A stretch of DNA of 64,000 nucleotides. Origin: a virus. Shown here piece by piece: positions 1,150-64,000 of this stretch. The notes beneath the pieces are model-generated. The model was not told the origin of the DNA. It saw nothing but the letters and a program-made list of their open reading frames with translations, and made no database searches. The DNA is taken from IMG/VR virus record IMGVR_UViG_3300045988_126281, one strand, 5' to 3'. Each line of letters opens with the position of its first letter. Position 1 is the first letter of the stretch. The position numbers and the translations under genes are program-made.

Positions 1150-1524
1150 TTAACGCATTAAATAGCCGCCAAGTTTATACATTTGGATTCGGTCAAAATA
1201 TTCTTTATTAGCATCTCTTTTAGCATTAATACCACCAAGAACTTTTCTTTTACCTCCACATCTCATTTGAGAAGTATTTTGAGTAGGAATAATAATTTTA
1301 TTTTGATAGTTAGCAATATAATCACGATTGCTAAGATTGGCTTGAATATTTTGTTGTTGCTGAATAGCATTTTGCTGATTTTGAGCTTCATTTTGATTTG
1401 CTATTTGGCGTTCAGCATTTTTCTTATTAGAATAAATGCTAACACCTGTTCCAATAGCAGAAGCTAAAGCACTAATAATACTACCAATTGCAAGTGCTCC
1501 TAAAGCACACTTTTTTCTTTTCAT
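1150..1524 (-). CDS. Small membrane-anchored protein (N-terminal TM helix, Q/N-rich region)
   Basis: 124-aa ORF with hydrophobic N-terminus ALGALAIGSIISALASAIG; its 3' end overlaps the upstream gene by 4 nt, consistent with an operon. Confidence 0.45.
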   Translation of the reverse strand: MKRKKCALGALAIGSIISALASAIGTGVSIYSNKKNAERQIANQNEAQNQQNAIQQQQNIQANLSNRDYIANYQNKIIIPTQNTSQMRCGGKRKVLGGINAKRDANKEYFDRIQMYKLGGYLMR

Positions 1525-19414: not shown

Positions 19415-19637
19415 AACTTAATGCACTAATAAGGTGTTCAAGATTAGCACAACGCGATTTATTAAAAATATTATAATTTTCAACAGCATGTAAAGCAATA
19501 TTACTAAGCATATTATTAATATAATTACAATCAGAATTTATAAAACCTTTTTCTTGTTTTTTTCCAGAAATAATATTACCATTAATTACTATATCAGCGT
19601 AATTATTAATAAGAAGCGATTTAACATTATTTTCCAT
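19407..19637 (-). CDS. Small hypothetical protein
   Basis: 76-aa ORF overlapping both neighbours by a few nt. Confidence 0.35.
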   Translation of the reverse strand: MENNVKSLLINNYADIVINGNIISGKKQEKGFINSDCNYINNMLSNIALHAVENYNIFNKSRCANLEHLISALSYA

Positions 19638-20214
19638 CTTTAAGATACTTACTAGTCACTTCATTAATAAAATCAGTAGTACGAATTGTTATTTTATTAT
19701 GTATATTATATATTCTTTGTTCTTTAGTAGCAGATTCATCAAATATAATATTAGTAATATCTTCAATTATATTGTTTTTCCAATCAGAATTAATATAATC
19801 AACAACATGTTTATTATTATTAGAATAAAGTATTAATTCATTATAAAGAGAAGCAAATTCTCCATAGACAGTATGCTTTATATTATCAATTATATTACTT
19901 CTATTGCGATTAACATTATTTGATATAATAGTAAAAGTACTAAATTTAACTATTGAATATGCCATGCCTTTAAAGGCAGTTCTAATAGATGAAACACAAC
20001 GGTCATCTTCTTTTTCTATAATGCCCTTAGTAATATAAGTTAAAAAAGAATTAAGTTTATTAGCCGCATCAAGAAGTTCAGCATTAACTTTTATTGTCTT
20101 TCTGTTTGATTCTCGTTCTTTTTTATTATCGAGAATTTTAGTAATAACTAAATAACTAAATATAACTAAAGTTGGAAGCCAACCGTATTCAAAACCTTTA
20201 AAAAGCCATTCCAT
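19627..20214 (-). CDS. Hypothetical membrane-anchored protein
   Basis: 195 aa with N-terminal hydrophobic helix WLPTLVIFSYLVITKIL. Confidence 0.5.
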   Translation of the reverse strand: MEWLFKGFEYGWLPTLVIFSYLVITKILDNKKERESNRKTIKVNAELLDAANKLNSFLTYITKGIIEKEDDRCVSSIRTAFKGMAYSIVKFSTFTIISNNVNRNRSNIIDNIKHTVYGEFASLYNELILYSNNNKHVVDYINSDWKNNIIEDITNIIFDESATKEQRIYNIHNKITIRTTDFINEVTSKYLKDGK

Positions 20215-30836: not shown

Positions 30837-31169
30837 TTATTTTAAAATTAAACCAATTAAAAGACCTATAATACAGCCACTACTTATAATAGTAACTGTT
30901 TTATAAGTCTTTATATTTTTAGAAAGTTTTTCGTTAAGAACTGTTGCATTAGCAACAGTTTTTCGACATTCTCCAATAACAATATTTTGTTCTATAATAT
31001 ATTTATCTTTTTGGATTATAAGAGAATCTTTTAAAATATTAAGGTCTTTATAATATTCTCGTTCAATAAGTTTAGCATTAATTTGTTTAATTTGTTCAAG
31101 ATTAAGAGTAATACTAGTATCAGCTTTTTGGTAAACTCCCTGTAAAGGAATGTGTTTATTACTTGCCAT
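30837..31169 (-). CDS. Lysis-associated membrane protein (C-terminal TM anchor, coiled coil)
   Basis: Probable start MASNKH; C-terminus VTIISSGCIIGLLIGLILK; adjacent to the endolysin. Confidence 0.4.
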   Translation of the reverse strand: MASNKHIPLQGVYQKADTSITLNLEQIKQINAKLIEREYYKDLNILKDSLIIQKDKYIIEQNIVIGECRKTVANATVLNEKLSKNIKTYKTVTIISSGCIIGLLIGLILK

Positions 31170-31464
31170 CAACAAGTTCCCAAAAGTATTTAATACTACC
31201 AGAATCATTAAGATTCTTAATATATTCAAGTTGCATTTCATAATAATTATTTGTAAAATTAATTCTATTATTAATATTGTTAATATTAGCATTAATAGAA
31301 TCTCTTTGATTCTTTCGATAAGTAGTATCTATTTTGGCATTCATATATTTATCTAAATCAGATTTAAGAACTTTAATTGTCCAACCTTGATAAAAACAAA
31401 ATCCAGCTAAAAAGAAAACTACTATGGTTAAAAGTATTAATAAGAAATTCATTTTAATTTTCAT
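31159..31464 (-). CDS. Signal-anchor periplasmic protein, i-spanin-like
   Basis: 101 aa with N-terminal TM helix FLLILLTIVVFFLAGFCFY followed by a hydrophilic coiled coil. Confidence 0.45.
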   Translation of the reverse strand: MKIKMNFLLILLTIVVFFLAGFCFYQGWTIKVLKSDLDKYMNAKIDTTYRKNQRDSINANINNINNRINFTNNYYEMQLEYIKNLNDSGSIKYFWELVDGK

Positions 31465-32179: not shown

Positions 32180-32548
32180 TTAATTGTTTAATGTACGTTT
32201 AATCCAACCTTTATAATATTTCATTTGAGAAGGTTTCTTATCAACAATATCAGTATATTTTCTGATACGTTCAAGTTTATATTTATAATAAAAAGTATTA
32301 GCTTTAGCATCTTTAATTGAATCTATATAAAGTTTTATTTTTTCATCTCTTTTAGCAAGTTCAACTTCATATAAATCTATACAATCTTGTTTAATACTTA
32401 ACTGCCTGTAAAGGGAATCAATAACTTTTGTAGTACTATCTTGATAATTTCTATTAACTTTATCAGCATCAATTACAATAGTTTCAATTCTTCTTCCACA
32501 ACTTATAAGAAGAAAACTGAAAATTAATAAAATTTGTAATTTTTTCAT
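32180..32548 (-). CDS. Lipoprotein, possible outer-membrane spanin
   Basis: Signal peptide with lipobox LLISCG; 122 aa; lies beside the lysis genes. Confidence 0.5.
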   Translation of the reverse strand: MKKLQILLIFSFLLISCGRRIETIVIDADKVNRNYQDSTTKVIDSLYRQLSIKQDCIDLYEVELAKRDEKIKLYIDSIKDAKANTFYYKYKLERIRKYTDIVDKKPSQMKYYKGWIKRTLNN

Positions 32549-35294: not shown

Positions 35295-35771
35295 TTAAAT
35301 ATTAATTCCAGCAGAAGTAATTTCTGGATTAAGTTCTATAACAACAAATTTAGCATCTGCTAAACTAACGTTAGAAATAAAATTATATTTATCAATAACT
35401 TTAATAGTTCCATTAGGAATACATCTTATTATATGTCTATCTAATAAACAATTAATAGCTCTATAATAAGTTGTTTTAGATTTACCATAAAAGTTTACAG
35501 CAGCTTTAACAATCTCATCTTGAACCATTTGTTTATTATTATAAACACACCAATAAATAGCAGTAAGGCATTCTCTTTCAGCTTTAGGAAGTTCAAGGGT
35601 ACAAGTGAATATTTTACAAAGATTAAGAAATTTAATATCTATATCACTATTCCCTTTAGATTTAGTATTATCACAAACAAACTTAACTATTTCTTCATCT
35701 TGAACAAAATGTGAAGATTCAAAATCAGTATAAGTTTTATGACCAGTTCTATCATCAACATTAAGATTCAT
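35295..35771 (-). CDS. Hypothetical protein (first gene of the leftward block)
   Basis: 158-aa ORF. Confidence 0.5.
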   Translation of the reverse strand: MNLNVDDRTGHKTYTDFESSHFVQDEEIVKFVCDNTKSKGNSDIDIKFLNLCKIFTCTLELPKAERECLTAIYWCVYNNKQMVQDEIVKAAVNFYGKSKTTYYRAINCLLDRHIIRCIPNGTIKVIDKYNFISNVSLADAKFVVIELNPEITSAGINI

Positions 35772-35855
35772 TATATCATAACTTTTACAATTTCTGCAAC
35801 TAATATACGCATTTTTTGTAAAAATTCAAATAATGTTTATATTAGTCTTAGTAAT

Positions 35856-35873
35856 CCTGCCTGTAAAGGAATT
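35856..35873 (+). repeat. Dispersed motif copy cctgcctgtaaaggaatt in the divergent promoter region
   Basis: Exact core copy read directly. Confidence 0.8.
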
Positions 35874-35906
35874 GTTATATTTAATGATATTATTATACCT
35901 TATGAT

Positions 35907-36554
35907 ATGATTAATAAAACTGAAATAAAATTTACTGCCTTTAGTATTACTTCTGTTCGTGCTGAACAAAAATCAGAAGATAATAATGCAACTCCTAAAT
36001 TTAGAATTAATACTGATAAAAAAGGACAAATGTATTTTAGAGTTAAGCAAGAAGAATTTAATCGTCTTGAAAGACTTAGACAAAGTATTGCTTGTACTCC
36101 TTTTGAAGTTAAAGATAAATATCCAAGTTCAATGCCTGTTGATACTGTTATTAATGATGGAATTTATTGTTTAATTGAGCCTTATAAATTATTTGAAATA
36201 GCTGACAGACTTCCAAAGAATTGTTTTAAATATTTTCTTATTCTTTGTAAAGAACTTCTTCCTGATACAAATATTATTACTTTAGTTGGAACAGAAGTTG
36301 CTAAAAAATATGGTTTTGATGTTAGTCATATTCAAAACTATAATGCTATTCTTTGTGATTTGCAAATTATAGTTAGAACTGATGTTCAAAGTACTTTTGT
36401 AATTAATCATAATATTATTTATAAAGGTGACCTTAATAAATTTTCTAAAAACTATAAAGAAATTTATAATGATTCTGTTCCAGAACGTATTAATTATACA
36501 AAGATAAAACTTAGTAATAAAAAAGCTTATGTTAACAAGAATAAAACGGATTAA
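35907..36554 (+). CDS. RepL-like replication initiator paralog 1
   Basis: C-terminal TFVINHNIIYKGDLNKFSKNYKEIY is paralogous to MYVVNHNMIFKGNLEKFIATYNELY of the 37587 ORF. Start moved to an internal ATG at 35907 to avoid overlap with the divergent gene. Confidence 0.5.
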   Translation: MINKTEIKFTAFSITSVRAEQKSEDNNATPKFRINTDKKGQMYFRVKQEEFNRLERLRQSIACTPFEVKDKYPSSMPVDTVINDGIYCLIEPYKLFEIADRLPKNCFKYFLILCKELLPDTNIITLVGTEVAKKYGFDVSHIQNYNAILCDLQIIVRTDVQSTFVINHNIIYKGDLNKFSKNYKEIYNDSVPERINYTKIKLSNKKAYVNKNKTD

Positions 36555-44606: not shown

Positions 44607-44924
44607 ATGATTGAACAAGTTAATCACCCTGCTCATTACCAAAATAATGGCAAAGAATGTATAGACCTTATGGTTGAAAAATATGGTCTTCGTGCTACTA
44701 TTGATTTTTGTATTCTTAACGCATTTAAATATATTTTTAGATGCGGTAAAAAAGAAGGTAATCCTGATTATCAAGAATTAAATAAAGCCGAATGGTATCT
44801 AAATTGGGCTGATAAACATAATATTTTCTCTGATATAGAAACTATGACTAATATTCTTGAACTTCAAAATAAGATTAATAATCTTAGAAGAGATATTGAA
44901 GCTAATGGTTCCAATAGCCAATAG
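44607..44924 (+). CDS. DUF3310-like phage protein
   Basis: N-terminal VNHPAHYQNNGKECIDLM matches the conserved HP.HY...E.ID signature of DUF3310. Confidence 0.5.
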   Translation: MIEQVNHPAHYQNNGKECIDLMVEKYGLRATIDFCILNAFKYIFRCGKKEGNPDYQELNKAEWYLNWADKHNIFSDIETMTNILELQNKINNLRRDIEANGSNSQ

Positions 44925-44944
44925 CAATCCCTTTACAGGCAGGA

Positions 44945-44977
44945 GTGGGTGCGCAAGCACCCACGGTTCTGTTCTTT
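44945..44977 (+). terminator. Terminator: GC-rich 8-bp stem gtgggtgc / gcacccac with GCAA tetraloop, then a T-rich run, immediately after a motif copy
   Basis: Read directly; follows the stop of the 44607..44924 gene. Confidence 0.6.
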
Positions 44978-45030: not shown

Positions 45031-45345
45031 TTGCGTAAAGTGATGAAAAATTATGATGAAGCAACTTGTGTTAAAGAACTTAATAAAAAAGTAAGTTGCG
45101 AAGTTGTTGATTCTGTTATTAATGTCCTTATTGGAGCTACCGATTTAGGAAATAGCAGTTGGGGAAAAATTGATTTCCTTAGAAGATATTGTGGTTATAG
45201 ACAAATCTTTGTCAAAGAACTTCCAAAACTTACTAAGAAAGTTCATATTGCTCGTGATGTTGAAGACACTGAAGTTACTCCTAAAAGAAGAAAAAAAGGA
45301 CTTCTTATTGATGCTAAAGTTAATATAAACTTTAAGTATAAATAA
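45031..45345 (+). CDS. Hypothetical protein
   Basis: 104-aa ORF. Confidence 0.45.
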   Translation: MRKVMKNYDEATCVKELNKKVSCEVVDSVINVLIGATDLGNSSWGKIDFLRRYCGYRQIFVKELPKLTKKVHIARDVEDTEVTPKRRKKGLLIDAKVNINFKYK

Positions 45346-45348
45346 GTC

Positions 45349-45813: not shown

Positions 45814-47269
45814 CCTTGAAATTGTAAGTAACAATACAATAAAAAGAACTAATCCAAATATAAATTTTACACAAAGTCAACAAGTGGCTATTGATGGACT
45901 TCTTGAGTTCATTAATAGCCCTTTTGATTCTGGTAAATTTATTAATGGATTAATAGGTTCGGGCGGTACTGGTAAAACTTTTACTATTAATTATATAATT
46001 AATGCCTGTAATTATGCTATAAGTACAATTCGTTGTACTGCTCCAACTCATAAAGCTTGTAGAGTTTTAAGTCAAGCTCTTAATGGACTTAAAGTTGAAA
46101 CTATACAATCTACATTTGGTTTTAGACTTGATACTAAACTTGAAGATTTTGATTATAATAATCCAAGATTTTCTCCAGTTAGTACTCCTAAACTTGAGAA
46201 TATCAAAGTTTTAATAATAGATGAAAGTTCTATGCTTCCTGCTAAACTTGTTAATTATATTATTAAAATTTGTAAGCCTCTTGAAATTAAAATTATTTTT
46301 ATTGGAGATTCAAGTCAATTACCACCTGTAAATGAAAAAACAAGTACTGCTTTTAATGTTTGTAATAAACTATATCAACTTACTGAAATAGTAAGACAAG
46401 AAGATAATAATCCTATATTATTTCTTTTAAATATACTTCGAGAAGATATTAAAAATAATACTTATAAATTTATTTCTTATATTAATGCTAATCTAAATTC
46501 ACAAAACGTTAATGAATTTGGAGATGGATATTTTATTTGTAATCCTAATGATTTTACTCAATTAATTGATGAAAGATTTAGAGATGAAGAATATCTTAAA
46601 AATATTAATCTTTATAAAATCATTGGATATACAAATGATAAAGTTGCTATATGGAATAATTTTGTAAGAAATAGAATTATTAAAGATGCTGATAAAACTA
46701 TTATTAATAAAAATGATTTAATCATGTCTTATCAGACTATTGTAAATGAATTTAATTCAATAGTTATTAATAATAGTGAAGAATATATAGTTAAAGATAT
46801 TATTAATTATACTGATACTACTTATGGATTTAAAGGATTTCTTGTTAAATTTCAAATGGTTAATGGTGGAAATGTAACAACTCCTTTATTTATTCTTGAC
46901 CATACTGATAGATTTAGTATTACTAAATATATACAAGTTATTGGAGAACTTGTTAAAGCTGCTAAATTTGCTAACGGAGCTACAAGAAGTAAACGTTGGA
47001 AAGAATATTTTGAATTCAAAAAGAAATATCTTATTATGTGTAATATTAAAAATGCTACACAAGTTCTTTATCAAAGAGATATTGATTATGGATTTGCTAT
47101 TACTTCTCATCGTTCACAAGGTTCTACTTATGATAATGTTTTTGTCGATATGAAAGATATTATATTTGATAAAAACAATAATATTTATAATAATAAAGCT
47201 GAAATGCTTCGTAGACTTTATGTAGCTTGTAGTAGAACTCGACATAAACTTTATATTTGTTATGGGTAA
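45806..47269 (+). CDS. SF1B DNA helicase (Dda/RecD/PIF1-like)
   Basis: Walker A GSGGTGKTF, Walker B LIIDESSM, motif VI AITSHRSQGSTYDNVFV. Confidence 0.85.
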   Translation: MDNLEIVSNNTIKRTNPNINFTQSQQVAIDGLLEFINSPFDSGKFINGLIGSGGTGKTFTINYIINACNYAISTIRCTAPTHKACRVLSQALNGLKVETIQSTFGFRLDTKLEDFDYNNPRFSPVSTPKLENIKVLIIDESSMLPAKLVNYIIKICKPLEIKIIFIGDSSQLPPVNEKTSTAFNVCNKLYQLTEIVRQEDNNPILFLLNILREDIKNNTYKFISYINANLNSQNVNEFGDGYFICNPNDFTQLIDERFRDEEYLKNINLYKIIGYTNDKVAIWNNFVRNRIIKDADKTIINKNDLIMSYQTIVNEFNSIVINNSEEYIVKDIINYTDTTYGFKGFLVKFQMVNGGNVTTPLFILDHTDRFSITKYIQVIGELVKAAKFANGATRSKRWKEYFEFKKKYLIMCNIKNATQVLYQRDIDYGFAITSHRSQGSTYDNVFVDMKDIIFDKNNNIYNNKAEMLRRLYVACSRTRHKLYICYG

Positions 47270-47771
47270 GCGGAATAAAGATAATAATAATTTTCAAGAT
47301 AATATTATTAGCAAACTCCCTGTAAAAGAATGCAATTACTGTCTTGGCTGTCCTGCTCGTCTTTATACTCCTAATGAATTTATAGTTTATGGTAAAGGAA
47401 ATGTTTGTTCTCCAATAATGTTTGTTATTTATGATTCTTATAAACATAAACAAGACAATATTAAATTACTTAAAGATGTTTATCAAGAATTATTTCAAAA
47501 AGATATTTTTGAAGAACATTATGTTACTACTGCTGTTAAATGCGAATGTCAAAATGAAATACTAATGCAAAGTTTTATTAATTGCAGAAATTTACTTTGT
47601 GACGAAATTACAAGTATTATGCCTAATAAAATAATTGTTGTTGGTAACATTCGTATTAATTTTGGTGATAAATATAAAATATATTATATTCCTAATATTT
47701 ATTCTTTACTATATGGAGAGAAAAATATTGCTAAATTTAAAGAACGATTATTAGAAGCAATTTATGATTAA
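47262..47771 (+). CDS. Possible family-4-type uracil-DNA glycosylase
   Basis: Cys cluster CNYCLGCPARL and GKGNVCSPIMFVIYDS, loosely resembling the Cx2C...GE[AG]PG core of UDG family 4. Confidence 0.35.
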   Translation: MGKRNKDNNNFQDNIISKLPVKECNYCLGCPARLYTPNEFIVYGKGNVCSPIMFVIYDSYKHKQDNIKLLKDVYQELFQKDIFEEHYVTTAVKCECQNEILMQSFINCRNLLCDEITSIMPNKIIVVGNIRINFGDKYKIYYIPNIYSLLYGEKNIAKFKERLLEAIYD

Positions 47772-50124
47772 TATTTGGTGCTATGATGTAGAGATATTAC
47801 CAAATTTCTTTAGTATAACATTTGTTAATCTTAGTTCATATACTAAAACTTTTAAAGATAGTTGTAATATTACTATTAAAAAAGGTAAAGAAAAACGTAT
47901 TCCAATTCCACTTACTGAAAAATATAAAGTTAGTGATATTAAAACAATGCTGGATTCAGTTGAATCTAAAACGTTTTGGATTTCAGATTTTAACGATAGT
48001 CAATTACTTACTATGATTGGCTTTATCAATTCGTTACAAGCTAAAAAAGACAGTAATAAAAACGTTTTTACGCACTGTTATGGTTACAACTCTGGAGCAT
48101 ACGATAAACTGATGGTTGCTTGCTTGCTGATGTATTACAATATGTTTTCAAGTACTAAAGAACTTATTAGAAAACTTTATGATACAAGTAAAAAGATAAT
48201 TGACCTTCAAGATAATGAAGAAATATCAAGAAAAGATTATTATCTTGATTCTCTTCGTAAATATCCTCTTCCTTATTATGACGTAGATTTAATGAAAGTA
48301 TTTGCACTTAATAAGGCTGGAACTATTATTGGTTCTGATGGAAAAAAATCTTATTATGGTAAAAGTCTTAAGCAAACAAGTATTAATCTTAAATGGTATG
48401 AACTTCTTGAATATGAACTCCCTCCTATTTGTGAAAAAGATGCTGAACTTTATTATAATAATCAACGTTATTCCGGTTTTACTTATGAACAACTTAATAG
48501 TGTTATAGATAAATGGGATAGATTTATGATTCCTGAATATGTTGAACCAACTATGCATTATAATAAAAATGATGTTTTTATTGTATGTGAAATGGCTCGA
48601 TTATATTCTGATGAAATAAAACTTCGTTATTCTATTTCTAATGCTTATGAAGTAAATGTTCTTAACAGTTCTCGTAGTAATGTTGCTGATATTCTTTTTA
48701 CAAAGTTTTATTCTGAATTTTCTAATCTTACTCCAAAACAATGGCAAGGTAAGAAAACAGAAAGACATAGTTATCCTCTTAAAAAAGTAATTTTTGATAA
48801 TATTAAATTTAAAACTAAACCTTTACAAGATTTACTTGAAGAACTTAAGAAAACTACTCTTTATAGTGTTGGCAAAGATGCACTTAATAAAACTATTGTA
48901 ATTGGTAATACTAAATATACTTTAGCTACTGGTGGATTACATAGTCAAGACCCTCCTCGTGTATTAAAAAGCAAACTTATTGAATGCGATCCCTCTACGG
49001 GCAGGAGCCGAGCCGTAGGCGAGGCAATTACTGATTTTAATTGGGATAATTATACTGATGATAGTTATGTGTATATACACGCTGATGTATCAAGTTTTTA
49101 TCCAAGTCTTATGACTGTTTATAAAATTGCTCCTGAGCATCTTGATACTGGTTGCTTTACTAAACTTGTTGGGTGGTTAAGAGATACTCGTGTTAAAGCT
49201 AAACATAGTGAAGAAGATATAATTGATGGTATTCCTAAAGATATTCTTGCACAAGCTCTTAAAATTGTAATTAATTCAATTTATGGAAAACTTGGTTCAG
49301 AATTTGGTAATCTTTTTGATAGATTGGCAGTTCTTAAAGTTACTATTAATGGACAACTTTTTGCATTTATGCTTAGTGAGGAACTTGAACTTAATGATAT
49401 TCCTGTAATTTCTGCTAATACAGATGGTATTGTTGTTAAAGTAAGAAAAGATAAATATTCAACTTTTCAACAAATTTATAAAAATTGGGAAAAATATACT
49501 GGATTAAGTCTTGATGAAGAATTTTATTCTGCTTATATAGATAGAGATATAAATAATTATTTTAGCATTGAACTTAATGGTAAATATACTTATAAAGGAG
49601 ATTTAAATCCTGATATGTATAAAGTAGATTTATCAAAAGGCTATAACGCTCCTATTGTTGCTAAAGCAGCTATTGAATTTTTGGCTCATAATAAACCTGT
49701 TCTTGAAACTCTTTATGAGTGTAAAGATATTCTTGACTTTTGTAAAACACAAAATATCGGAAGACAATTTCATACTGAATTTTATAAAGGTCAAACTAAA
49801 GAAATATTACAAAGACAAATTAGATTTTATGTTTCTATGATTGGAGGAAATTTATTTAAAGTTTCTAAAGAAGGAACTTTGAATAATCTTTGTGCTGGGT
49901 ATAAAGTTAATATTCTTAATACTCTTGATGATACACCAATTGAATTAAGGAATATTAATTATTCTTATTATGCTGATGAAGCATATAAGATTATAGACCC
50001 TATTAAATTAGGTATTAGTCCTAATCAAAAAGGTAATCCAAATACTAAAATTAAATCTGGTAAGTCTTTGCTTAAAAAGAATGCTCAAGCATATTTTAAT
50101 CTTTTTGATGATGAAGAAGATTGA
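47764..50124 (+). CDS. Family B DNA polymerase
   Basis: Motif A DVSSFYPSL (DxxSLYPS), motif B KIVINSIYGKLG (KxxxNSxYG), motif C-like ANTDGIVV. Confidence 0.9.
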   Translation: MINIWCYDVEILPNFFSITFVNLSSYTKTFKDSCNITIKKGKEKRIPIPLTEKYKVSDIKTMLDSVESKTFWISDFNDSQLLTMIGFINSLQAKKDSNKNVFTHCYGYNSGAYDKLMVACLLMYYNMFSSTKELIRKLYDTSKKIIDLQDNEEISRKDYYLDSLRKYPLPYYDVDLMKVFALNKAGTIIGSDGKKSYYGKSLKQTSINLKWYELLEYELPPICEKDAELYYNNQRYSGFTYEQLNSVIDKWDRFMIPEYVEPTMHYNKNDVFIVCEMARLYSDEIKLRYSISNAYEVNVLNSSRSNVADILFTKFYSEFSNLTPKQWQGKKTERHSYPLKKVIFDNIKFKTKPLQDLLEELKKTTLYSVGKDALNKTIVIGNTKYTLATGGLHSQDPPRVLKSKLIECDPSTGRSRAVGEAITDFNWDNYTDDSYVYIHADVSSFYPSLMTVYKIAPEHLDTGCFTKLVGWLRDTRVKAKHSEEDIIDGIPKDILAQALKIVINSIYGKLGSEFGNLFDRLAVLKVTINGQLFAFMLSEELELNDIPVISANTDGIVVKVRKDKYSTFQQIYKNWEKYTGLSLDEEFYSAYIDRDINNYFSIELNGKYTYKGDLNPDMYKVDLSKGYNAPIVAKAAIEFLAHNKPVLETLYECKDILDFCKTQNIGRQFHTEFYKGQTKEILQRQIRFYVSMIGGNLFKVSKEGTLNNLCAGYKVNILNTLDDTPIELRNINYSYYADEAYKIIDPIKLGISPNQKGNPNTKIKSGKSLLKKNAQAYFNLFDDEED
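48989..49027 (-). repeat. Motif copy atccctctacgggcagg plus a GC-rich extension, embedded in frame in the polB CDS
   Basis: The 39-nt GC-rich island encodes DPSTGRSRAVGEA. Its sequence architecture is near-identical to the intergenic element at 44927..44964. Confidence 0.7.
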
Positions 50125-51535
50125 TATTTATGAAAAAGCTGTACAAAGTTTAATGGAGGAGTTTCAAGCTCATAAGGGTAAAGGATATTGTTATATTTAT
50201 CCTCCTGCTAATCCAATAACTTTTGTTACTCAATTTATACAAAGAATAAAAAATAAACGTTCTTTTGCTAAAATACTTGTAGTTGTAGAAGATTGGTCTT
50301 TAGTAGATAAATGTAAATCTGCCTTTAAAGGAATGGTATCTATTGAAGATTATGATAATTTTATAGCAGATATTACTTTTCTTAGTACAAAATGGATTAA
50401 TACTTCTTTTAATTATAAATATACATTTGGTGTTACTATTGGATTAAATAATAATTATCCAATCTATGCTTATTTTAACAGAACGTGCCAATTTGTACTT
50501 GGTATTCTTACTAAAGATAACATGAATGCTGATTTTAAATATGGAATAAGCCGTCAACTTCCATTACTTAATATTAATCTTGATGAAAGTAATGTAACTG
50601 CTGCAAGAGTTAATACTCCTGTAAATGAATATAGAATACCTCTTCAATTTACTGAAGCAGATAAAGAAATTTATGATAAATATAATGCTTTCATAAAAAG
50701 TTGTAATACTATTTTTGGTGGTCTTGATAATATTACAAAATGTAGAATTGGAGATAAAGATAATGGAATAAGTGCTATGGATTTTAGATATAGACTTGCT
50801 ATTAATAACGGTTGGTCTGAAAAACTTGATACTAATACTGAATTTAATAGACAAATTGATGAAATATATAATCCTGTAAGTCTTTATCAAAGAGCAGAAT
50901 CATTTTTTAATATTACAAGAGCCAGACGTGAACTTGTAATGAATAATGAAAATAAATTTGATTCTATTCTTAATATTGTAAAAGATAATATTACTAAAAA
51001 AATACTTGTTGTTTGTAAAGATGGCAACTATGCAAATAAACTAATGAAGTATCTAAATAATGCAATTAAAGAATACGACAAAAAAGAAATTGCTGGTTGT
51101 TATCATGATGAAGTAGAAGCAAGATATTTTTCTGATAATTTTGGTAATCCTATTGTTTATAAATCGGGTAAACATAAAGGCGAACCAAGACTTTTTAAAT
51201 CTGCTATTGTAAGTACTTATTTTGAAGAGTTGTTTAATTCTAATAAAATAAATGTACTTATTATTAAAGAAAGTTCAAATAATAAACTTTCAGTTAATGC
51301 TGACATTATTATTTATACAAGTAGTTTACTTGCCGATATATTTGATTTTAAGAAAAGATATATAAATGTAACATTTACTAATAATATTACTACTCTTTAT
51401 AAAATATTTTATAGTGGAAGCATAGAAGAAGATTCGATTAATAGAGAAATACCTTCTACACTTATTTCGGTGCATGAAAATAACGAATTGCAAAAATTGC
51501 AACTGAATAAGACCACTAATGAGATAATCATATAA
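50108..51535 (+). CDS. Hypothetical protein (start MMKKIDIYE; overlaps the polymerase stop)
   Basis: About 475-aa ORF, no motif recognised. Confidence 0.55.
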   Translation: MMKKIDIYEKAVQSLMEEFQAHKGKGYCYIYPPANPITFVTQFIQRIKNKRSFAKILVVVEDWSLVDKCKSAFKGMVSIEDYDNFIADITFLSTKWINTSFNYKYTFGVTIGLNNNYPIYAYFNRTCQFVLGILTKDNMNADFKYGISRQLPLLNINLDESNVTAARVNTPVNEYRIPLQFTEADKEIYDKYNAFIKSCNTIFGGLDNITKCRIGDKDNGISAMDFRYRLAINNGWSEKLDTNTEFNRQIDEIYNPVSLYQRAESFFNITRARRELVMNNENKFDSILNIVKDNITKKILVVCKDGNYANKLMKYLNNAIKEYDKKEIAGCYHDEVEARYFSDNFGNPIVYKSGKHKGEPRLFKSAIVSTYFEELFNSNKINVLIIKESSNNKLSVNADIIIYTSSLLADIFDFKKRYINVTFTNNITTLYKIFYSGSIEEDSINREIPSTLISVHENNELQKLQLNKTTNEIII

Positions 51536-54572: not shown

Positions 54573-55760
54573 ATGGGAAGAAATGTTAATTCATCTAATC
54601 TTAGTAAAAATTATATTCTTTCTAAAGTTAGTCAAGTTACTATTTTTAGTACATATTTTGATTTACCTGTTCAGATAATTAATAATTGTATTGAAACTGG
54701 CGAATTAATACTTTCTCCTATCAGAAATGACCAACATCCGACTTGTGGTTTTCGATATGATAATCGAGGTAGATTAAAATTTAAAGATTTTGCTGGATAT
54801 TTTTGGGGAGATTGTTTTGATGCTGTTGCTTTAGTTTTATCTACTATAAAAGGAAAACAATATAATGTTTCTAATAAAAATGATTTTATTGCTATTCTTA
54901 CTCACATAACTTATACTTTTAAAAATATATTTTATGGTACTGAAATAGATACAAATGCTATTTCTTTAATAAGTAATAGTCTTGAACTTATTAAGAAAAA
55001 GAAACCTATTATAGAACTTGTTGTTCGTGAATGGACTGAAGAAGATAAAAAATATTGGAATAATTTTGGTATTACTTTACAATATCTTAATCTTAATTTT
55101 GTTTATCCAATAGACCAATATTATATTGACAGAAAAATTAATCCTCAACCTAAATATTTTTATAAAGAAAGCGACCCTTGTTATGCTTATTATCTTGGTA
55201 AAGATAAAAATAATATTATGAATATTAAACTTTATTTTCCTAATAGGCATCATCAATGTACTCGTTTTATTACTAATTGTAATCATCTTGAAGGTATTCT
55301 TAATTTAACAAGAAATGATTATGATTTTATTGTTATTACTAAGTCTACTAAAGATAGATTAAGTATTGGTTGTACCTTACTTTCAACTTCACTCTTTTAC
55401 AGGCAGGATGCCAAAAACAAAATTGGAGTTATTAATATTCCTCATGAAACATATAAACTTAGAAGTTTTGAATATGATTGGCTTAAGTCTAAACTTTCTA
55501 TAAATGGTATTATTGTTTCATTAATGGATAATGATAGAACAGGTTATCTTGAAGCTCAGTGGCTTCGTAAAAAATATGATATTGTTCCTTTAATTATTCC
55601 AAAAGAATATGAAAGTAAAGATTTTGCTGAACTTCGTTCTAAAGTTACTTTTGATAATATTATAGAACTTATAAAATCTACTATTAATAAAGTTGAAGAA
55701 TATGAGAAAACAAAAGAATATATTAGGAATAAAGAAACGAGTGATATTAGCCCGTTTTGA
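54573..55760 (+). CDS. DNA primase (DnaG-like zinc-binding plus TOPRIM)
   Basis: N-terminal Cys/His cluster HPTCGFRYD...GDCFD and TOPRIM DxD motif LMDNDRTG. Confidence 0.65.
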   Translation: MGRNVNSSNLSKNYILSKVSQVTIFSTYFDLPVQIINNCIETGELILSPIRNDQHPTCGFRYDNRGRLKFKDFAGYFWGDCFDAVALVLSTIKGKQYNVSNKNDFIAILTHITYTFKNIFYGTEIDTNAISLISNSLELIKKKKPIIELVVREWTEEDKKYWNNFGITLQYLNLNFVYPIDQYYIDRKINPQPKYFYKESDPCYAYYLGKDKNNIMNIKLYFPNRHHQCTRFITNCNHLEGILNLTRNDYDFIVITKSTKDRLSIGCTLLSTSLFYRQDAKNKIGVINIPHETYKLRSFEYDWLKSKLSINGIIVSLMDNDRTGYLEAQWLRKKYDIVPLIIPKEYESKDFAELRSKVTFDNIIELIKSTINKVEEYEKTKEYIRNKETSDISPF

Positions 55761-57142: not shown

Positions 57143-58372
57143 ATGATTAAAATTCCATTTCCTTTTATTAAAGGTTTTTATAGAAGAAATAATTACGGAG
57201 AGCCTTATGTTTGGTATGGAGAAGTTATTGGTACTAATAGTATTAAAGTTTATCATGGAATTGTAGGAAAAAGTATTTCTAATCAAATTCTTTTTACAAC
57301 AAGAGATGCAGATAAAGAACTTCAAAGTAAAATTAAAGCCAAACTTAAAGAAGGTTATATTACCATAGATGAAATAAGAGATTGTGGAAGCCTCCCCGTA
57401 GAGGAATCATTACAAGATTTTCTTGATAAATATCTTCCTATTGTTAGAACTACTGATAGCGGTACAACTTTAGCTATGCTTGCTAAAATATTTGATAATA
57501 CTAATAATAAACTTTTTAATAATAATCAATATTATCTTGGGCAATGGAAGATTAATGGTCTTCGTTGTATTATTCGTGCTGAAATTGATGAACAAGATAT
57601 TTTTAAAAGACCGAAACTTAAATTTATTAGTCGTGAAGGTACTATTTGGAAAAGTTTAGGTAATCTTGAAGAATATCTTTTACAAGTTATTCCAAAAGAT
57701 GTAATTGATTCTATTATTTACTATGATTTTGCTCTTGATGGCGAACTTTATCTTCCTGGGTATTCAGTAAATCAAATTAATCATATTGTTAAAGATTCAA
57801 CTTGCATTGAAAATTCTAAAATTCAATATTGGTGTTATGATTTAGTTGCCAGCGATATTGTTGCTAAAGAAAGATATAATTATCTTTTAGATAAACTTGG
57901 AAATTTTATTCCAAAATTTGTTTATAAAGAACAACATATACATAATACTAATCGCTTTGTTCTTCTTCCAAGTACAACTATTACTACTGAAATAGAAGCT
58001 CTTTCTGAAAGAAATAATTATATAGATTTAGGTTTTGAAGGTCTTATTCTTAAAGTTCCGGATGTAGAATATGCTTATGGAAAACGTAGTCCTAAATATA
58101 TGATTAAATATAAATCTACTAATGATGGAATATTTACTATTGTGGATATTTATCCAGAAGATAAAAGAGATATTCCTTTAATTAAAGTTAAAAATGATAT
58201 TAATGATGCTACTTTTGAAGTTCATATAAATGGAACTTTTGAATACCAAAAAGATATTCTTAAAAATCGTGATAAATATATTAATAAACAATTATTTATT
58301 ACTTTTGGAGAAAGAAGTGGTGTTAATCAAGTTCCTTTTCATGTTAAAGAAGTTAGATTTTGTAATTATTAA
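57143..58372 (+). CDS. ATP-dependent DNA ligase (nucleotidyltransferase superfamily)
   Basis: Motif I variant WKINGLR (KxNGxR rather than KxDGxR), motif III FALDGELY, motif IV EGLILK, motif V K-x-K. Confidence 0.65.
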   Translation: MIKIPFPFIKGFYRRNNYGEPYVWYGEVIGTNSIKVYHGIVGKSISNQILFTTRDADKELQSKIKAKLKEGYITIDEIRDCGSLPVEESLQDFLDKYLPIVRTTDSGTTLAMLAKIFDNTNNKLFNNNQYYLGQWKINGLRCIIRAEIDEQDIFKRPKLKFISREGTIWKSLGNLEEYLLQVIPKDVIDSIIYYDFALDGELYLPGYSVNQINHIVKDSTCIENSKIQYWCYDLVASDIVAKERYNYLLDKLGNFIPKFVYKEQHIHNTNRFVLLPSTTITTEIEALSERNNYIDLGFEGLILKVPDVEYAYGKRSPKYMIKYKSTNDGIFTIVDIYPEDKRDIPLIKVKNDINDATFEVHINGTFEYQKDILKNRDKYINKQLFITFGERSGVNQVPFHVKEVRFCNY

Positions 58373-58759
58373 ATGAGTATTTATAAATATAATATACTTA
58401 ATCCTGTTACTGATAAACATAAACCACATTATGTTGAAAAATGTAATTGGTTTATTTTTCCTACTACTAAACGATATAGATATTATGTTGAAGTAAGTAA
58501 ATTAAATGATAGAGGAATAACTGAATATTATCTTCTTCTTTCTGAAAAAAAATTTGATGAAAATTGTCGTATTTGTGATTATAGTGTTTATCACGGTAAT
58601 AAAATTCACCCAAGAGGAGAATTAAAAGATTATCTTATTCAAGAAAGTAAAGAAAGAGGAAATCTTTATTGTACTTATAAATGTACTGAAGAAAGTGAAA
58701 TTGTTTTTGATACTGGAGAAATTAAAGTTGTTCCTTATGATGTATATCATATAGTATAA
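58373..58759 (+). CDS. Hypothetical Cys-rich protein
   Basis: 128 aa with CRICDYS...CTYKCTEE. Confidence 0.5.
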   Translation: MSIYKYNILNPVTDKHKPHYVEKCNWFIFPTTKRYRYYVEVSKLNDRGITEYYLLLSEKKFDENCRICDYSVYHGNKIHPRGELKDYLIQESKERGNLYCTYKCTEESEIVFDTGEIKVVPYDVYHIV

Positions 58760-59686: not shown

Positions 59687-59967
59687 AAGATAGACTTAAA
59701 ATTGCAAGAGACATTCAAGATAAATGTCTTATTAATAAAATAGAATGTGATGTAAAAACTAATTTTCATGAAACTGAATCAAAAAACAATAATACATGTA
59801 AGTACCCTAATATATATCCTTATATTTCTATTTGGATACTTCCTAAAAATAAACGTGAATATTGTTCTTCTCTTTATCTTTGGAATGATGATGAAAATAT
59901 AAAAGAACTTGATAAATATAAGTGTTTTATGGATACATTAGAAAAATTAATAAAAGAATGCGATTAG
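59677..59967 (+). CDS. Small hypothetical protein
   Basis: 96-aa ORF. Confidence 0.4.
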   Translation: MDIKDRLKIARDIQDKCLINKIECDVKTNFHETESKNNNTCKYPNIYPYISIWILPKNKREYCSSLYLWNDDENIKELDKYKCFMDTLEKLIKECD

Positions 59968-60821
59968 TTTCTTTTTCTGTTAGTCCTATTGATAATCATA
60001 ACAAAATTAAAAAAGTTGCAGAATGTGCAAGAATTTGTTATGCTTCTGAAAATAAAGGAGATGATTCTAAAGATTTTGAATTAGTTAAAAGACTTCAACA
60101 CGATAAACATTTTAGTATGTTTAGACATATTACTTTTTATTATATTATTCCTGTTAAATCTATTAATAAAGAATGTCTTTTTAAATTTAAAAATACTCCA
60201 TACGTTGGTTATGCTAAATATAAAGGAAATTATTATTTAGCTTGTAATGGTCAATTTGTTCTTGAGCATCAAAATTTAATTAATCAATGTATTCAACCCG
60301 AATGGGAAGTTGAAAAAGAAAAATTTCAAGGAAATTATATTACTGAAAAATTAATTAGATATACTTTTAAAATTAATACTCAGATAAGTACTACACGAGA
60401 ACTTAATCGTGTTAGTCCTAATAATATTGCTGAACAATCTACAAGATATGTTGATTTTAATAAAAAATTAGGTATTCAAATTGCAACTCCTCATTGGTTT
60501 TATGGTTTAACTACCTGTAAAAGAATGTTGGCTAAACTTATGTTTAAAACTACTGAATGGAATTATAAACTTGCTAAAAAAGTTCTTGGTCTTAAACCAC
60601 AAGATGCAAGAGAATTTCTTTGTCTTGGAACTAATTCAGTTGTAGTTTATACATATTCATTAAAAGAATGGAGGCATATTCTTGATTTGAGATATTTTGG
60701 TACAACTGGTATTCCTCATCCTAATGCTTATGCAGTGGCTTCTGCTATTAAAAAGATATTTAAAGAGCATTATGATATTGATATTAATGAAAAAGGTTTT
60801 GAATCAAGTAGAATAAAATAA
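59958..60821 (+). CDS. thyX: Flavin-dependent thymidylate synthase ThyX
   Basis: Start MRLVSFS; KVAECARICYAS and HFSMFRHITFYY match the ThyX N-terminal core; S.RY motif ...EQSTRYVDF. Confidence 0.7.
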   Translation: MRLVSFSVSPIDNHNKIKKVAECARICYASENKGDDSKDFELVKRLQHDKHFSMFRHITFYYIIPVKSINKECLFKFKNTPYVGYAKYKGNYYLACNGQFVLEHQNLINQCIQPEWEVEKEKFQGNYITEKLIRYTFKINTQISTTRELNRVSPNNIAEQSTRYVDFNKKLGIQIATPHWFYGLTTCKRMLAKLMFKTTEWNYKLAKKVLGLKPQDAREFLCLGTNSVVVYTYSLKEWRHILDLRYFGTTGIPHPNAYAVASAIKKIFKEHYDIDINEKGFESSRIK

Positions 60822-61592: not shown

Positions 61593-62246
61593 ATGATTAA
61601 AAATTATAGCGTACTTCCAGCAGCAAAAGATATTCGAGAACATATTGAAATTGAATATTCTTTTGCTGCTCAAAAGTTTTTTGGTGCTAAAGGACAAGCT
61701 CTTAGTAAACTTTATCAGTTTCTTGACCAAGTTTATAAAGATTCTTCTCCTGAAGTTATCAAAGAACTTTCTAATATAATGAATTATTATTCTAATACAG
61801 GTAATTTTAGTCCTATAACGCTTAATGATGAAGAATTTAATATGCATGGATATAATATTCGTAATAAAAATATTGTTAAATACTCTACCGCTATTGTTAA
61901 TAAAGCCGCATATTCTCTTCCATTTGATGTTAAGACAGATAGACTTTATATTACTGTAAATGGAGAAATAACTAATTGGTATCTTCATAGATGTGCAATT
62001 CCTTTACGGGCAGGCAAACAAGATTATACAATATATGCTCCAATTAAACTTTTTGCTTGGTCTGCTGTAAGCAATAAAGGTATTATTGCTGTTTCTCCTA
62101 TTGTTGAAATTAAAAAACTTCTTAAATATTATAAACTTGAAATTCTTCAAGATAATGTTATTGAAGTAGATAAGAAATATGGTGAATTAAATAAAACTTA
62201 TACAAAAGATGGCTTATTTAGTAAAGGGAGCACCATTCAGATATAA
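61593..62246 (+). CDS. Hypothetical protein
   Basis: 217-aa ORF. Confidence 0.5.
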   Translation: MIKNYSVLPAAKDIREHIEIEYSFAAQKFFGAKGQALSKLYQFLDQVYKDSSPEVIKELSNIMNYYSNTGNFSPITLNDEEFNMHGYNIRNKNIVKYSTAIVNKAAYSLPFDVKTDRLYITVNGEITNWYLHRCAIPLRAGKQDYTIYAPIKLFAWSAVSNKGIIAVSPIVEIKKLLKYYKLEILQDNVIEVDKKYGELNKTYTKDGLFSKGSTIQI

Positions 62247-63247: not shown

Positions 63248-63676
63248 ATGGAAATAAAAATTAAATTATTATCAGATAAAGCTAAACTCCCTGTAAAGGG
63301 AACTGATGATTCAGCTGGTTATGACCTTACTGTTGCTTCTGCATTTTGGGATAGAAGTAATAATGTAATTTCTTATGGATTTGGAATCGCTATTGAAATT
63401 CCTAAAGGTTGGGTTGGTCTTATTTTTCCTCGTTCTTCTGTTTATAAAAAGAATCTTGATTTAACTAATTGTGTTGGAGTTATTGACTCTGATTATCGTG
63501 GAGAAATTAGTGCTAAATTTAGACTCCTTAATCCAAATGCTGATAATATTTACGTTGTTGGAGAAAGAGCTGCTCAAATAGTTTTTGTTCAACACGGAAA
63601 TATCGATTTTAAGGTATCAAATGAGCTTTCTGAAACTTTAAGAGGAGCTGGAGGTTATGGACACACTGGAGATTAA
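63248..63676 (+). CDS. dut: dUTPase
   Basis: Motifs AGYDL, PRSSVYKK, GVIDSDYRGEI and a C-terminal Gly-rich RGAGGYGHTG. Confidence 0.9.
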   Translation: MEIKIKLLSDKAKLPVKGTDDSAGYDLTVASAFWDRSNNVISYGFGIAIEIPKGWVGLIFPRSSVYKKNLDLTNCVGVIDSDYRGEISAKFRLLNPNADNIYVVGERAAQIVFVQHGNIDFKVSNELSETLRGAGGYGHTGD

Positions 63677-63679: not shown

Positions 63680-63943
63680 ATGATTTTTTATTATACTCTT
63701 AATATTCGTTATTGTGATATTTCTAAAAAGAAAATAGATAATATTGAATGTTCTTGTGCTACTAATGGTGTTCAGCGTTCTATTAAAGATATTTCTGATT
63801 ATTATCAAAATCTTTATGATTGGGTCATAATAGATTGTGATGCTGAAATACAAATTTGGAAAAGTATTAAATTTACTATTCTTGATTTTATTTTTAAATT
63901 TGATTGGATTAGAAATAAATTTACTAAAATTGAAAAAGATTAA
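63680..63943 (+). CDS. Small hypothetical Cys-containing protein
   Basis: 87-aa ORF. Confidence 0.45.
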   Translation: MIFYYTLNIRYCDISKKKIDNIECSCATNGVQRSIKDISDYYQNLYDWVIIDCDAEIQIWKSIKFTILDFIFKFDWIRNKFTKIEKD

Positions 63944-63964
63944 TGTTTAACTGCCTGTAAAGGG

Positions 63965-64000
<36 letters not shown>

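Follow-up and report, generated by a model that had tools for sequence, protein, structure and literature searches.

A genome-specific nucleotide word, in some copies followed by a compensating hairpin, within the DNA polymerase gene and across the genome of a crAss-like phage

The stretch of DNA considered here (IMG/VR virus record IMGVR_UViG_3300045988_126281; 64,000 nt with a GC content of 28%, hereafter the window) encodes a family B DNA polymerase (PolB) of a crAss-like phage, and within the polB gene lies a GC-rich segment at positions 48989-49027. We are highly confident that this segment is the polB copy of a two-part cis-element. The first part is a word of 14-17 nt that is selected at the nucleotide level, has a consensus peculiar to each genome and occurs in all Intestiviridae examined; the second, which only a minority of copies have, is a hairpin specific to one strand, beginning at a set distance of a few nucleotides 3' of the word, with stems that change in compensating fashion. 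Copies of the word sit at sites that tolerate them, either in variable loops of proteins, whatever the open frame, or in the spacers directly behind stop codons. The hairpin follows a single plan: an outer stem, then tandem G.A/A.G mismatches and a short stem of G-C pairs, capped by a C-G-closed loop of GNA or GNNA.

The polB open reading frame (ORF; 47764..50124) specifies a protein of 786 amino acids that shares 54-58% identity with the polymerases of crAssphage, Whopevirus and cr3_1. A megablast search of polB against phage records gave no match, and we therefore regard the phage as a new genus-level relative. The segment, 39 nt long, reads ATCCCTCTACGGGCAGG-AGCCGAGCCGTAGGCGAGGC, in frame and without stops. 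It is translated as DPSTGRSRAVGEA (residues 409-421), lies 20 codons ahead of polymerase motif A (DVSSFYPS, residue 441) and 1119 nt before the stop codon, in the middle of the gene, and is followed by AATTACTGATTTTAA. Its shortness and uninterrupted frame, together with the absence of any Rfam intron family from the window, speak against an intein or self-splicing intron in polB. A second sequence, ATCCCTTTACAGGCAGG-AGTGGGTGCGCAAGCACCCAC, occupies 44927-44964 and starts 3 nt past the stop codon of ORF 44607..44924. The tails that follow the word have GC contents of 75% in polB and 70% at 44945. An earlier note, made from the sequence alone, had set out both sequences, the in-frame translation, the distance of about 20 codons to motif A and the contrast between GC-rich tails and an AT-rich genome, all of which hold. 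It presented the two as a matching pair, which does not: they belong to a family of about 25 copies in the window, and are its only hairpin-bearing members. Their parts are as follows.

48989..49005, + strand: polB word ATCCCTCTACGGGCAGG, sense, read D-P-S-T-G-R; orthologous copies in crAssphage, cr110, Whopevirus, L020 (a sister genus) and dozens of PolB orthologs
49007..49025, + strand: polB tail hairpin GCCGAGCC-GTA-GGCGAGGC, 1 nt past the word; codes R-A-V-G-E
44927..44943, + strand: intergenic word ATCCCTTTACAGGCAGG, 3 nt past the stop of ORF 44607..44924; corresponds in position to crAssphage 6021+
44945..44964, + strand: hairpin GTGGGTGC-GCAA-GCACCCAC, 1 nt past the word and followed by GGTTCTGTTCTTTG; terminator-like

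The left-hand 19-mer shared by the two sequences has 11 matches in the window at up to three mismatches, and none in 100 shuffles. When the window was scanned with a position weight matrix at thresholds of more than 12 and more than 20 bits, and compared with the shuffled window, 31 sites exceeded the lower threshold and about 25 the higher; shuffles gave 0-3. The consensus is (gc)aATTCCTYTACRGGCAG(G/T), with a conserved, non-palindromic core of 17 nt. Copies occur on both strands, between genes and inside some 17 different ORFs, where the word is read in all three sense frames (IPLQG, SFTGR, LYRQ) and in both stop-free antisense frames (LPVKE, ACKG). Since the word appears in every open frame of about 17 genes, the conserved object must be the nucleotides and not a peptide. 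The two degenerate positions of the consensus are linked: C..G occurs in 5 copies, T..A in 20, C..A in 2 and T..G in 1 (Fisher p=0.0012). At the polB site the window has C..G, a 98% relative (L007) C..A and a 92% relative (L009) T..A, the last entailing a change from Ser to Phe. A hairpin inside the core word itself was considered and rejected; just 3-5 weak pairs with G.T can form, and Wotdevirus shows no covariation of the outer stem.

Beyond the window, the homologous word of crAssphage (BK010471), TCCTCYACGGGGRG with consensus tccaTCCTCYACGGGGRGt, is present in about 32 copies on both strands and is the most over-represented GC-containing word of that genome. Whopevirus (CCTTTACGGGCCAG) and Wotdevirus of the subfamily Obtuvirinae (CTTCTACGGGGGAGG) likewise have a homologous word of their own as top over-represented k-mer, as do the cultured Bacteroides phage crAss002 (CCTTTACGGGGGAA; host Bacteroides xylanisolvens, about 30 copies) and six partial genomes. 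Each Intestiviridae genome examined holds 20-35 copies. The word's 16-mer was also compared with 185,579 bacterial and archaeal species genomes and, among the matches listed, yielded only single scattered hits in unrelated phyla. A word dictated by the host, Chi-like or related to restriction, was rejected on this basis: among those matches no bacterial genome is enriched for the 16-mer. As the dialects differ between phages and no host genome shows enrichment, the factor that reads the word is, we infer, a phage factor.

Placement was quantified by pooling 136 copies from five genomes. Of these, 52 are sense, 50 antisense and 34 intergenic, so that 102 (75%) fall inside ORFs. The intergenic share of 25% is about three-fold that expected from the 8.3% of DNA that is non-coding (p=4e-9), and intergenic copies often lie within 60 nt past a stop codon. 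Close pairs (up to 300 nt apart) are invariably inverted (17 of 17, with no tandem pair; p=1.5e-5), and eight of the nine pairs no more than 120 nt apart are divergent. The pairs of the window are these.

26095-26111, - strand, and 26121-26137, + strand: inverted word pair that folds into a 17-bp hairpin flanked by T-rich sequence; the gene on one side ends at 26169, that on the other starts at 25837
37274-37290, - strand, and 37380-37396, + strand: divergent word pair at the ORF-poor junction of two gene arms
42364-42380, - strand (1 nt past a stop codon), and 42605-42621, + strand: divergent word pair, counterpart of crAssphage 3346-/3450+

The first pair has a spacer of 9 nt and folds strongly (z=-9.6); T runs flank it on both strands, TTTAATTTTG follows, and it looks like a bidirectional terminator built from the word. 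It adjoins the long ORF ending at 26169, which occupies the position of the crAssphage portal gene.

A protein-anchored mapping between the window phage and crAssphage identified positional orthologs of the word in four genes: polB, primase, a ligase homolog (antisense in both phages) and the homolog of the gp50 tail-tubular gene. Each carries the dialect of the genome in which it resides. The primase copy, in a gene whose identity is confirmed by PHROGs (E=2e-90), is common to the window, crAssphage, Wotdevirus and crAss002, that is, to three subfamilies; for the polB, ligase and gp50 copies, sharing is within Crudevirinae. The three copies outside polB are listed here.

55391..55407, + strand: word in the DNA primase gene, sense; no other position is as deeply conserved
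57391..57407, - strand: word in the ligase-homolog gene, antisense; same position and orientation in crAssphage and Whopevirus
6388..6404, - strand: word in the tail-tubular (crAssphage gp50) homolog, sense; in crAssphage the ortholog copy has a hairpin (long form)

Seven further in-gene copies of the window that could be mapped are not shared with crAssphage. Six of the seven align without an indel at the motif, from which it follows that they have arisen by substitution and not by insertion. In the comparison with the 92% relative, substitutions affect 2 of the 77 positions of the 11-nt core but 14.4% of the flanking positions (p=6e-4); the copy at 42364-42380 on the minus strand is absent from that relative. 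Positional orthologs, indel-free gains and a conserved core together point to selection that keeps the word present, and to a factor able to read each dialect. The polB core is an old, positionally conserved copy of a family-wide word, and the rise of most new copies by substitution speaks against simple mobility of the core by insertion.

At the polB site, the segment lies between a conserved ATGGLHSQD.P..LKS block and motif A, in a stretch whose length varies between 18 and 49 residues in a set of 120 orthologs; Obtuvirinae and other lineages have practically none of it. Matches of the window PolB to solved structures are weak and confined to the palm motifs of Pol alpha; placing the loop on a solved polymerase was therefore dropped and an AlphaFold model used instead (mean predicted local distance difference test score, pLDDT, 86; predicted template modelling score 0.83). 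In this model residues 411-420 are coil with a mean pLDDT of 55, between strands 399-402 and 435-442, and the segment fits a tolerant, flexible loop; the earlier note had supposed a tolerated insertion in a surface loop. S-T-G is read here in 49 of 119 orthologs, P/S-L-Q/K/R-G in about 19 and L-Y-G in Whopevirus. The underlying DNA runs through three frames: TCT ACG GGN; CCT CTA CGG GGA or TCT TTA CAG GGG; and CTT TAC GGG. Because the same nucleotides are thus read in three frames at one site, it is they, and not the peptide, that are conserved, which settles the comparison of nucleotide with protein conservation that the earlier note had proposed. The proposition that the resemblance is due to chance, or to a peptide such as S-T-G-R that the polymerase needs, can draw on the frequency of S-T-G at the loop position. 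The loop is nevertheless dispensable in many orthologs, the word stands in unrelated genes, on both strands and between genes, and shuffles produce almost none. A peptide motif is ruled out by the frame data, and we give the proposition as a whole practically no credence.

L020 has the word without a tail, and 10 nt precede its conserved TGG GAT AAT where the window has 40, so that about 30 nt are extra in the window. The earlier note's suggestion that a small element had been recruited into polB is borne out to this extent, as an alignment of orthologs shows; the idea of a recent insertion is not, the 17-nt part being old, family-wide and kept in many orthologs. That note had also named an equally long, AT-rich loop devoid of the motif as the observation that would count against it; the polB loop of Whopevirus is equally long and mostly AT-rich, and retains the motif core. 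Another lineage, L164 (P0113), has a longer form of the polB word, CCTTCCTCTACGGGGGAGGAA, similar to the Wotdevirus dialect ACCTTCTACGGGGGAGGT; this form folds by itself as a hairpin of eight pairs, and there is no separate tail. This hints that pairing internal to the word may replace the tail in some lineages.

The window's polB tail can fold with six Watson-Crick pairs, a tandem G.A/A.G and a GTA triloop. It is identical in five close relatives, which leaves no covariation information within the window lineage. Eight further polB tails come from distant lineages, with the loop exactly 19 nt past the T of TAC in all. They read as follows (loop in lower case).

polB tail: CC GA GGC gaa GCC GA GG
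polB tail: TC GA GGC gaa GCC GA GA
polB tail: TTAC GA GC gaa GC GA GTAA
polB tail: TCAC GA GC gaa GC GA GTGA
polB tail: CCAC GA GC gta GC GA GTG
polB tail: CGC GA GT gaa AC GA GCG
polB tail: TGC GTA GC gaa GC GGA GCA
polB tail: GTGGTTGC gaa GCGACCAC

The nine lineages align in one ungapped register, with one architecture and differing sequences. Covariation over the nine-pair helix is 0.497, compared to 0.134 +- 0.043 in column shuffles (none of 500 reached the observed value) and to only 0.012-0.154 in six slid registers. Seven of the nine pairs vary on both sides, and four are intact in all nine sequences with two to three pair types each; the middle positions of the helix are non-standard G.A pairs, and G.U-type pairs are rare (2 cells). 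Pairing partners lie in different codons and some of the compensating changes are nonsynonymous, for example CTT..AAT against CTC..GAT, hence selection on the protein cannot yield the pattern. It is on account of this covariation among orthologs, and not of fold energy, that we accept the polB tail as a real hairpin. A functional nucleic-acid structure embedded in coding sequence, which the earlier note had offered as its alternative, is strongly supported by the compensatory changes.

In a neighbour-joining tree of PolB, six GA-type tails fall in one clade, while the window and L162 stand elsewhere, near polymerases that lack the tail or the loop. Tails thus occur at no fewer than three separate places, always beside the word, which implies that the tail has been gained, exchanged or lost several times and always in the same register. 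Related tails also turn up at unrelated loci: the L162 polB tail resembles the window's intergenic tail at 44945, and that of L156 has the 17-mer GCGTAGCGAAGCGGAGC in common with an intergenic long form of crAssphage (28172). Such a pattern invites the view that the word, and especially its GC-rich tail, is a miniature mobile or gene-conversion element, spreading into tolerated sites, in-frame positions in genes among them, with no benefit to the phage. GC-richness in an AT-rich genome, the 30 extra nucleotides relative to L020, near-identical tails at unrelated loci of different phages and the turnover of copies between close relatives are all what it would predict. Against it, the core is just 17 nt long and most new copies of it are free of indels; positional orthologs last at less than 55% protein identity while tracking the consensus of each genome; the core is under purifying selection; and compensatory change in the stems bespeaks selection on the structure itself. 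Moreover, a check of the annotations of four complete genomes (crAssphage, Whopevirus, Wotdevirus and crAss002), made without a hidden Markov model search, shows no transposase and in particular no RAYT/Y1 transposase. We consider a purely selfish repeat improbable.

Word-plus-hairpin copies, or long forms, are found elsewhere too. The intergenic hairpin at 44945-44964 has, as the earlier note stated, a perfect 8-bp stem with a GCAA loop (z=-3.7 as DNA, -2.9 as RNA) and is called by a terminator scan, with eight pairs, the tail GGTTCTGTTC and a position 21 nt past the stop codon; the same scan did not call the polB copy. In the relatives L007 and L018 this site retains all 16 stem bases despite divergence of the spacer, of the flanks on either side and of the loop, where GCAA has become GTTA. 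GC islands are rare in these genomes of 28% GC; two of the window's four (p=0.017) and five of the 13 in crAssphage (p=2e-4) stand immediately 3' of a word, far above chance expectation. A strict scan for C-G- or T-A-closed GNA/GNNA hairpins 4-8 nt past the core returned two long forms in the window, four in crAssphage and two in crAss002, one of the latter inside a coding region (gp7) and with the same tandem G.A. Looser inspection raises the crAssphage figure to about seven, including copies inside gp45 and gp50; the gp50 long forms of nine strains are identical or nearly so and thus uninformative for covariation. Seven of the eight strict long forms are on the sense strand. Their loops are GAA/GTA triloops or GNNA (GCAA, GTTA, GAAA), C-G-closed and accompanied by Y-GA-R tandem mismatches. 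A general rule of motif plus hairpin was tried and abandoned, since perfect hairpins of at least 5 bp are no commoner downstream of copies than upstream and long forms are few. Nor is either site a tRNA or a member of a known RNA family: ARAGORN and Rfam find nothing at either, Rfam 15 recognises only three tRNAs in the window, and a permissive scan of 44800-49200 has no match at the two sites.

These data bear on another account, in which the 17-mer alone matters, as a double-stranded DNA site bound by a phage protein in a density-dependent and orientation-free manner (for organisation or packaging, self-marking or global regulation), and the hairpins are ordinary terminators or incidental GC-rich insertions beside it. 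The lack of strand bias, the use of all frames, the intergenic enrichment, turnover by point substitution, a genome-specific consensus with positional orthologs, and inverted pairs that serve as terminator-like hairpins all agree with it, as do two genomes that have the word without long forms. It leaves unexplained the fixed register between word and hairpin with its conserved tandem-G.A/GNA architecture, the strand specificity of long forms, and compensatory hairpin evolution inside polB and other coding regions, where a terminator would be unwanted. We judge this account, too, to be rather unlikely.

There remains the question of whether the element works as DNA or as RNA. Our preferred reading, which we put forward tentatively and rate at somewhat less than an even chance, is that it acts on DNA and not as a peptide or mainly in mRNA, that it is read by a co-evolving phage protein, and that long forms mark start sites for an enzyme that uses single-stranded DNA. 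A C-G-closed GNA triloop with tandem G.A mismatches is the geometry typical of very stable DNA mini-hairpins, such as d(GCGAAGC), and of N4 virion RNA polymerase promoters and single-stranded DNA origins; RNA prefers GNRA and UNCG tetraloops, and such triloop geometry is unusual there. We favour action on DNA because short forms show no strand preference, because GAA/GTA triloops with C-G closure and Y-GA-R mismatches dominate the hairpins, and because G.U-type pairs are rare in the stems.

The competing view places the element in RNA: the word would be a single-stranded site on mRNA for a protein or RNase and the hairpin its partner, together controlling processing, stability, pausing or antitermination in the manner of lambda nut boxA plus boxB, T7 RNase III sites, 3'-end stabilisers or terminators, with antisense short forms as by-products or as actors on antisense transcripts. 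It accommodates the sense placement of long forms, the clustering of intergenic copies just past stop codons, the terminator-like 44945 hairpin with its U-rich tail, the strong hairpins made by inverted pairs and then T runs, the GNRA character of some loops (GCAA, GAAA) and the Y and R degeneracies of the crAssphage word, which allow G.U pairing. It fits poorly with short forms that are as frequent antisense as sense, with an antisense ligase copy that is positionally conserved in three genera, with the predominance of C-G-closed triloops and the change in a relative of GCAA to GTTA, which is not GNRA, and with the rarity of G.U pairs. In addition, a terminator in the middle of polB would be harmful, no U tract follows the polB hairpin and no Rfam family matches. 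An RNA-level element is accordingly a possibility we take seriously while thinking it unlikely.

On the preferred DNA reading, a phage-encoded protein co-evolving with the word of each genome would recognise the word; the hairpin of the long forms would form on the gene-sense strand once this is single-stranded or extruded, and would mark a start site for a phage enzyme needing single-stranded DNA. One option would be priming or origin-like initiation by a DnaG-type primase and replisome, another an N4-style hairpin start for a virion RNA polymerase dependent on single-stranded DNA. Gene orientation and GC skew suggest that forks leave the junction of the divergent gene arms, in which case the sense strand would be the lagging-strand template. 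Intergenic copies and inverted pairs could double as terminator-like hairpins, in places where such sequences do no harm. The virion RNA polymerase of crAss-like phages transcribes only single-stranded or denatured DNA in vitro, and their early promoters have no known motif; in the phi14:2 paper the middle and late promoters are sigma-70-like and no early motif is given, for which reason we discarded the idea that the word is a known crAss-like promoter. These phages encode a DnaG-type primase, and with a virion RNA polymerase of this kind also encoded, a start signal for one or the other is the most attractive specific mechanism. That Intestiviridae carry genome-wide, strand-specific signals of this sort, word plus hairpin at key sites, as initiation sites for primase and replisome or for the virion RNA polymerase, with some of them set within the coding sequence of essential genes (polB, primase, ligase, virion proteins), is a more particular claim, and one we regard as possible though doubtful.

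The region 36600-37650, about 1 kb and poor in ORFs, lies at the junction of the divergently transcribed arms and at the minimum of cumulative GC skew; it holds the 37274/37380 pair and is a candidate origin or regulatory region. ORF 35739..36554 near the junction is weakly similar to crAssphage RepL gp43 (one weak tblastn hit). Each of the two annotated RepL genes of crAssphage (gp43, gp88) has a divergent pair of long forms ahead of it, within 300-600 nt. The GC-rich tails of these pairs (28075-28210; 95743-95915) consist of (AGCGN)n runs, which are overlapping GCGNAGC units.

Several observations weigh against the preferred reading. Whopevirus and Wotdevirus have the word and, in the scan, no long forms. 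The fold of the window's own polB tail, which the earlier note had proposed to examine, is no more stable than shuffles (z=-0.07 as DNA, -0.56 as RNA), and the covarying polB sequences are in part related by descent. A lagging-strand priming signal would be predicted to show a sense bias that short forms lack. Long forms past stop codons, one with a U-rich tail, fit a role in RNA equally well, and sense orientation cannot separate mRNA from lagging-strand template. Near the junction no trans factor was identified, Pfam and PHROGs giving only the primase and DUF3310, and the RepL-like ORF has no Pfam or PHROG support.

The remaining copies of the word in the window are as follows.

35856..35872, - strand: word where the divergent arms meet, about 85 nt ahead of the minus-strand gene starting at 35771; 5' end of the weakly RepL-like ORF
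1841..1857, + strand: word, antisense in ORF 1521..5717
2097..2113, - strand: word, sense in ORF 1521..5717; crAssphage alignment without indel
7434..7450, + strand: weaker word (20 bits), antisense in ORF 6659..7588
15634..15650, - strand: word, sense in ORF 14467..16014, read D-P-S-T-G-S
19964..19980, + strand: self-palindromic variant GCCTTTAAAGGC, scoring on both strands, in ORF 19627..20214
31135..31151, - strand: word, sense in ORF 30837..31292, I-P-L-Q-G frame
32401..32417, - strand: word, sense in ORF 32180..32548, L-Y-R-Q frame
47315..47331, - strand: word, antisense near the start of ORF 47262..47771, K-L-P-V-K-E
50318..50334, - strand: word variant (TAAAGG), antisense in ORF 50081..51535
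60510..60526, - strand: weaker word, antisense in ORF 59958..60821; no indel relative to crAssphage
61998..62014, + strand: word, sense in ORF 61593..62246; T..G intermediate of the Y/R pair
63286..63302, - strand: word, antisense at the N-terminus of ORF 63248..63676, K-L-P-V-K-G-T
63950..63966, - strand: intergenic word, 7 nt past the stop of ORF 63680..63943; abuts a (TA)n run

The (TA)n microsatellite, at about 63967-63990, directly adjoins the last of these, and AT-rich repeats likewise follow the crAssphage long form at 95864; the run could be an unwinding element. The word also bears a resemblance to a universally conserved segment of 16S rRNA at about positions 338-357, which we take to be ACTCCTACGGGAGGCAGCAG (the 341F/EUB338 target): Wotdevirus matches the CTACGGG..AGG part and the window the TACRGG..CAG part, and the likeness may be coincidence.

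The window holds only four GC islands in all. Of the two that no word adjoins, one (58764-58783, GCGGTTGGAACTCCAGCCGC) is a hairpin 5 nt past the stop of ORF 58373..58759 and looks like a terminator, and the other (12438-12458, CCGGCACTACCGCCTTCAGGC) is inside ORF 11018..13396. A tRNA cluster at 43382-43698 (Lys-TTT, Leu-TAA, Gln-TTG), in the replication-gene arm, serves A/T-rich codons throughout. Around polB, Wotdevirus MH552500 has a GIY-YIG endonuclease and a PacI-like endonuclease adjoining a uracil-DNA glycosylase gene, and the polB of cr3_1 is split by a homing endonuclease; given these homing-type genes in relatives, the polB region is a hotspot for other kinds of insertion as well.

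Comparison with known systems places the element under none of them, as the defining features of each are lacking. In distribution it is closest to DNA uptake sequences (Neisseria DUS, Pasteurellaceae USS), which are short words occurring roughly once per 2-4 kb without strand preference, with coding copies where the protein tolerates them, intergenic enrichment, inverted pairs as terminators and dialects among lineages. These are, however, bacterial and recognised by a competence receptor in transformation, so that the likeness is one of distribution pattern only; the phage is of lytic type, its word is longer (14-17 nt), and a subset of copies has a hairpin in fixed register. Among phages the nearest match in distribution is the stoperators of mycobacteriophage cluster A, asymmetric sites of 13-17 nt in 20-35 copies across the genome, with a consensus that varies among related phages and so implies a co-evolving phage protein. 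Stoperators, in contrast, are mostly intergenic, co-oriented with transcription and bound by an immunity repressor, whereas the phage word is mostly intragenic and without preference for sense or antisense, and the annotations examined show no repressor or lysogeny module.

By hairpin geometry the closest systems are the N4 virion RNA polymerase promoters and G4-type single-strand initiation (ssi) signals, which have a GC-rich DNA hairpin with a purine-rich, C-G-closed loop of 3 nt beside conserved sequence and serve an enzyme dependent on single-stranded or extruded DNA. The hairpin of N4 promoters has a stem of 5-7 bp and a loop of 3 nt; the phage element shows GAA/GTA triloops, with inner stems of 2-3 bp and outer stems of 2-4 bp around tandem G.A. 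N4 differs in that its promoters number just three, sit at one end of the genome upstream of early genes, and have their hairpin on the strand that is the template of those genes; in the phage element the loop and G.A features are on the sense strand and the copies are dispersed, some lying inside polB, gp45, gp50 and crAss002 gp7. G4-type signals are hairpins on the lagging-strand template that DnaG primase recognises. Sense-strand placement in both arms and a DnaG-type primase would be compatible with these, the direction of forks being taken from gene orientation and GC skew.

Rickettsia palindromic elements, repetitive extragenic palindromic (REP) sequences and bacterial interspersed mosaic elements, and the GC clusters of yeast mitochondria are also repeated, hairpin-prone and GC-rich, and the Rickettsia elements and some clusters are in frame and translated. 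They are, however, insertions of 35-150 nt with similarity over their full length, whereas the phage unit is a non-palindromic 17-mer that mostly arises by substitution, and its tails share architecture and register more than sequence. The indel test that such elements would pass gives a divided answer: the tail is extra relative to L020, yet many orthologs have the word without a tail. The extragenic location of REP sequences and their mosaics likewise differs from a word that is mainly inside ORFs. Finally, lambda nut sites (boxA and boxB) resemble the long forms in that, on the sense strand, a linear conserved box precedes by a few nucleotides a short hairpin whose loop is of the G...A type. 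A genome has about two such sites, located in early leader transcripts and with a pentaloop that is GNRA-like, unlike an element with dozens of words, mostly without hairpin, half of them antisense, and mainly triloops where hairpins occur.

Full-text literature searches, with the sequences and with crAss-related repeat, motif, promoter and terminator terms, found no description of the element, which is apparently undescribed in that literature. In the human gut no viruses are more abundant than the crAss-like phages, whose replication origins, virion RNA polymerase promoters and regulatory DNA are essentially unknown. The element is a concrete cis-acting sequence, present in the cultured crAss002, with which to find the protein that reads it. 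It is also a clear case of overlapping constraints, with protein code and nucleic-acid structure held in the same codons, and it calls for caution in annotation and in estimates of evolutionary rate, since GC-rich "insertions" and rare codons in these genes are not neutral. Should the reading as a signal in single-stranded DNA prove true, this would be a phage cis-element of a new class, and the way in which these polymerases locate their start sites would be accounted for.

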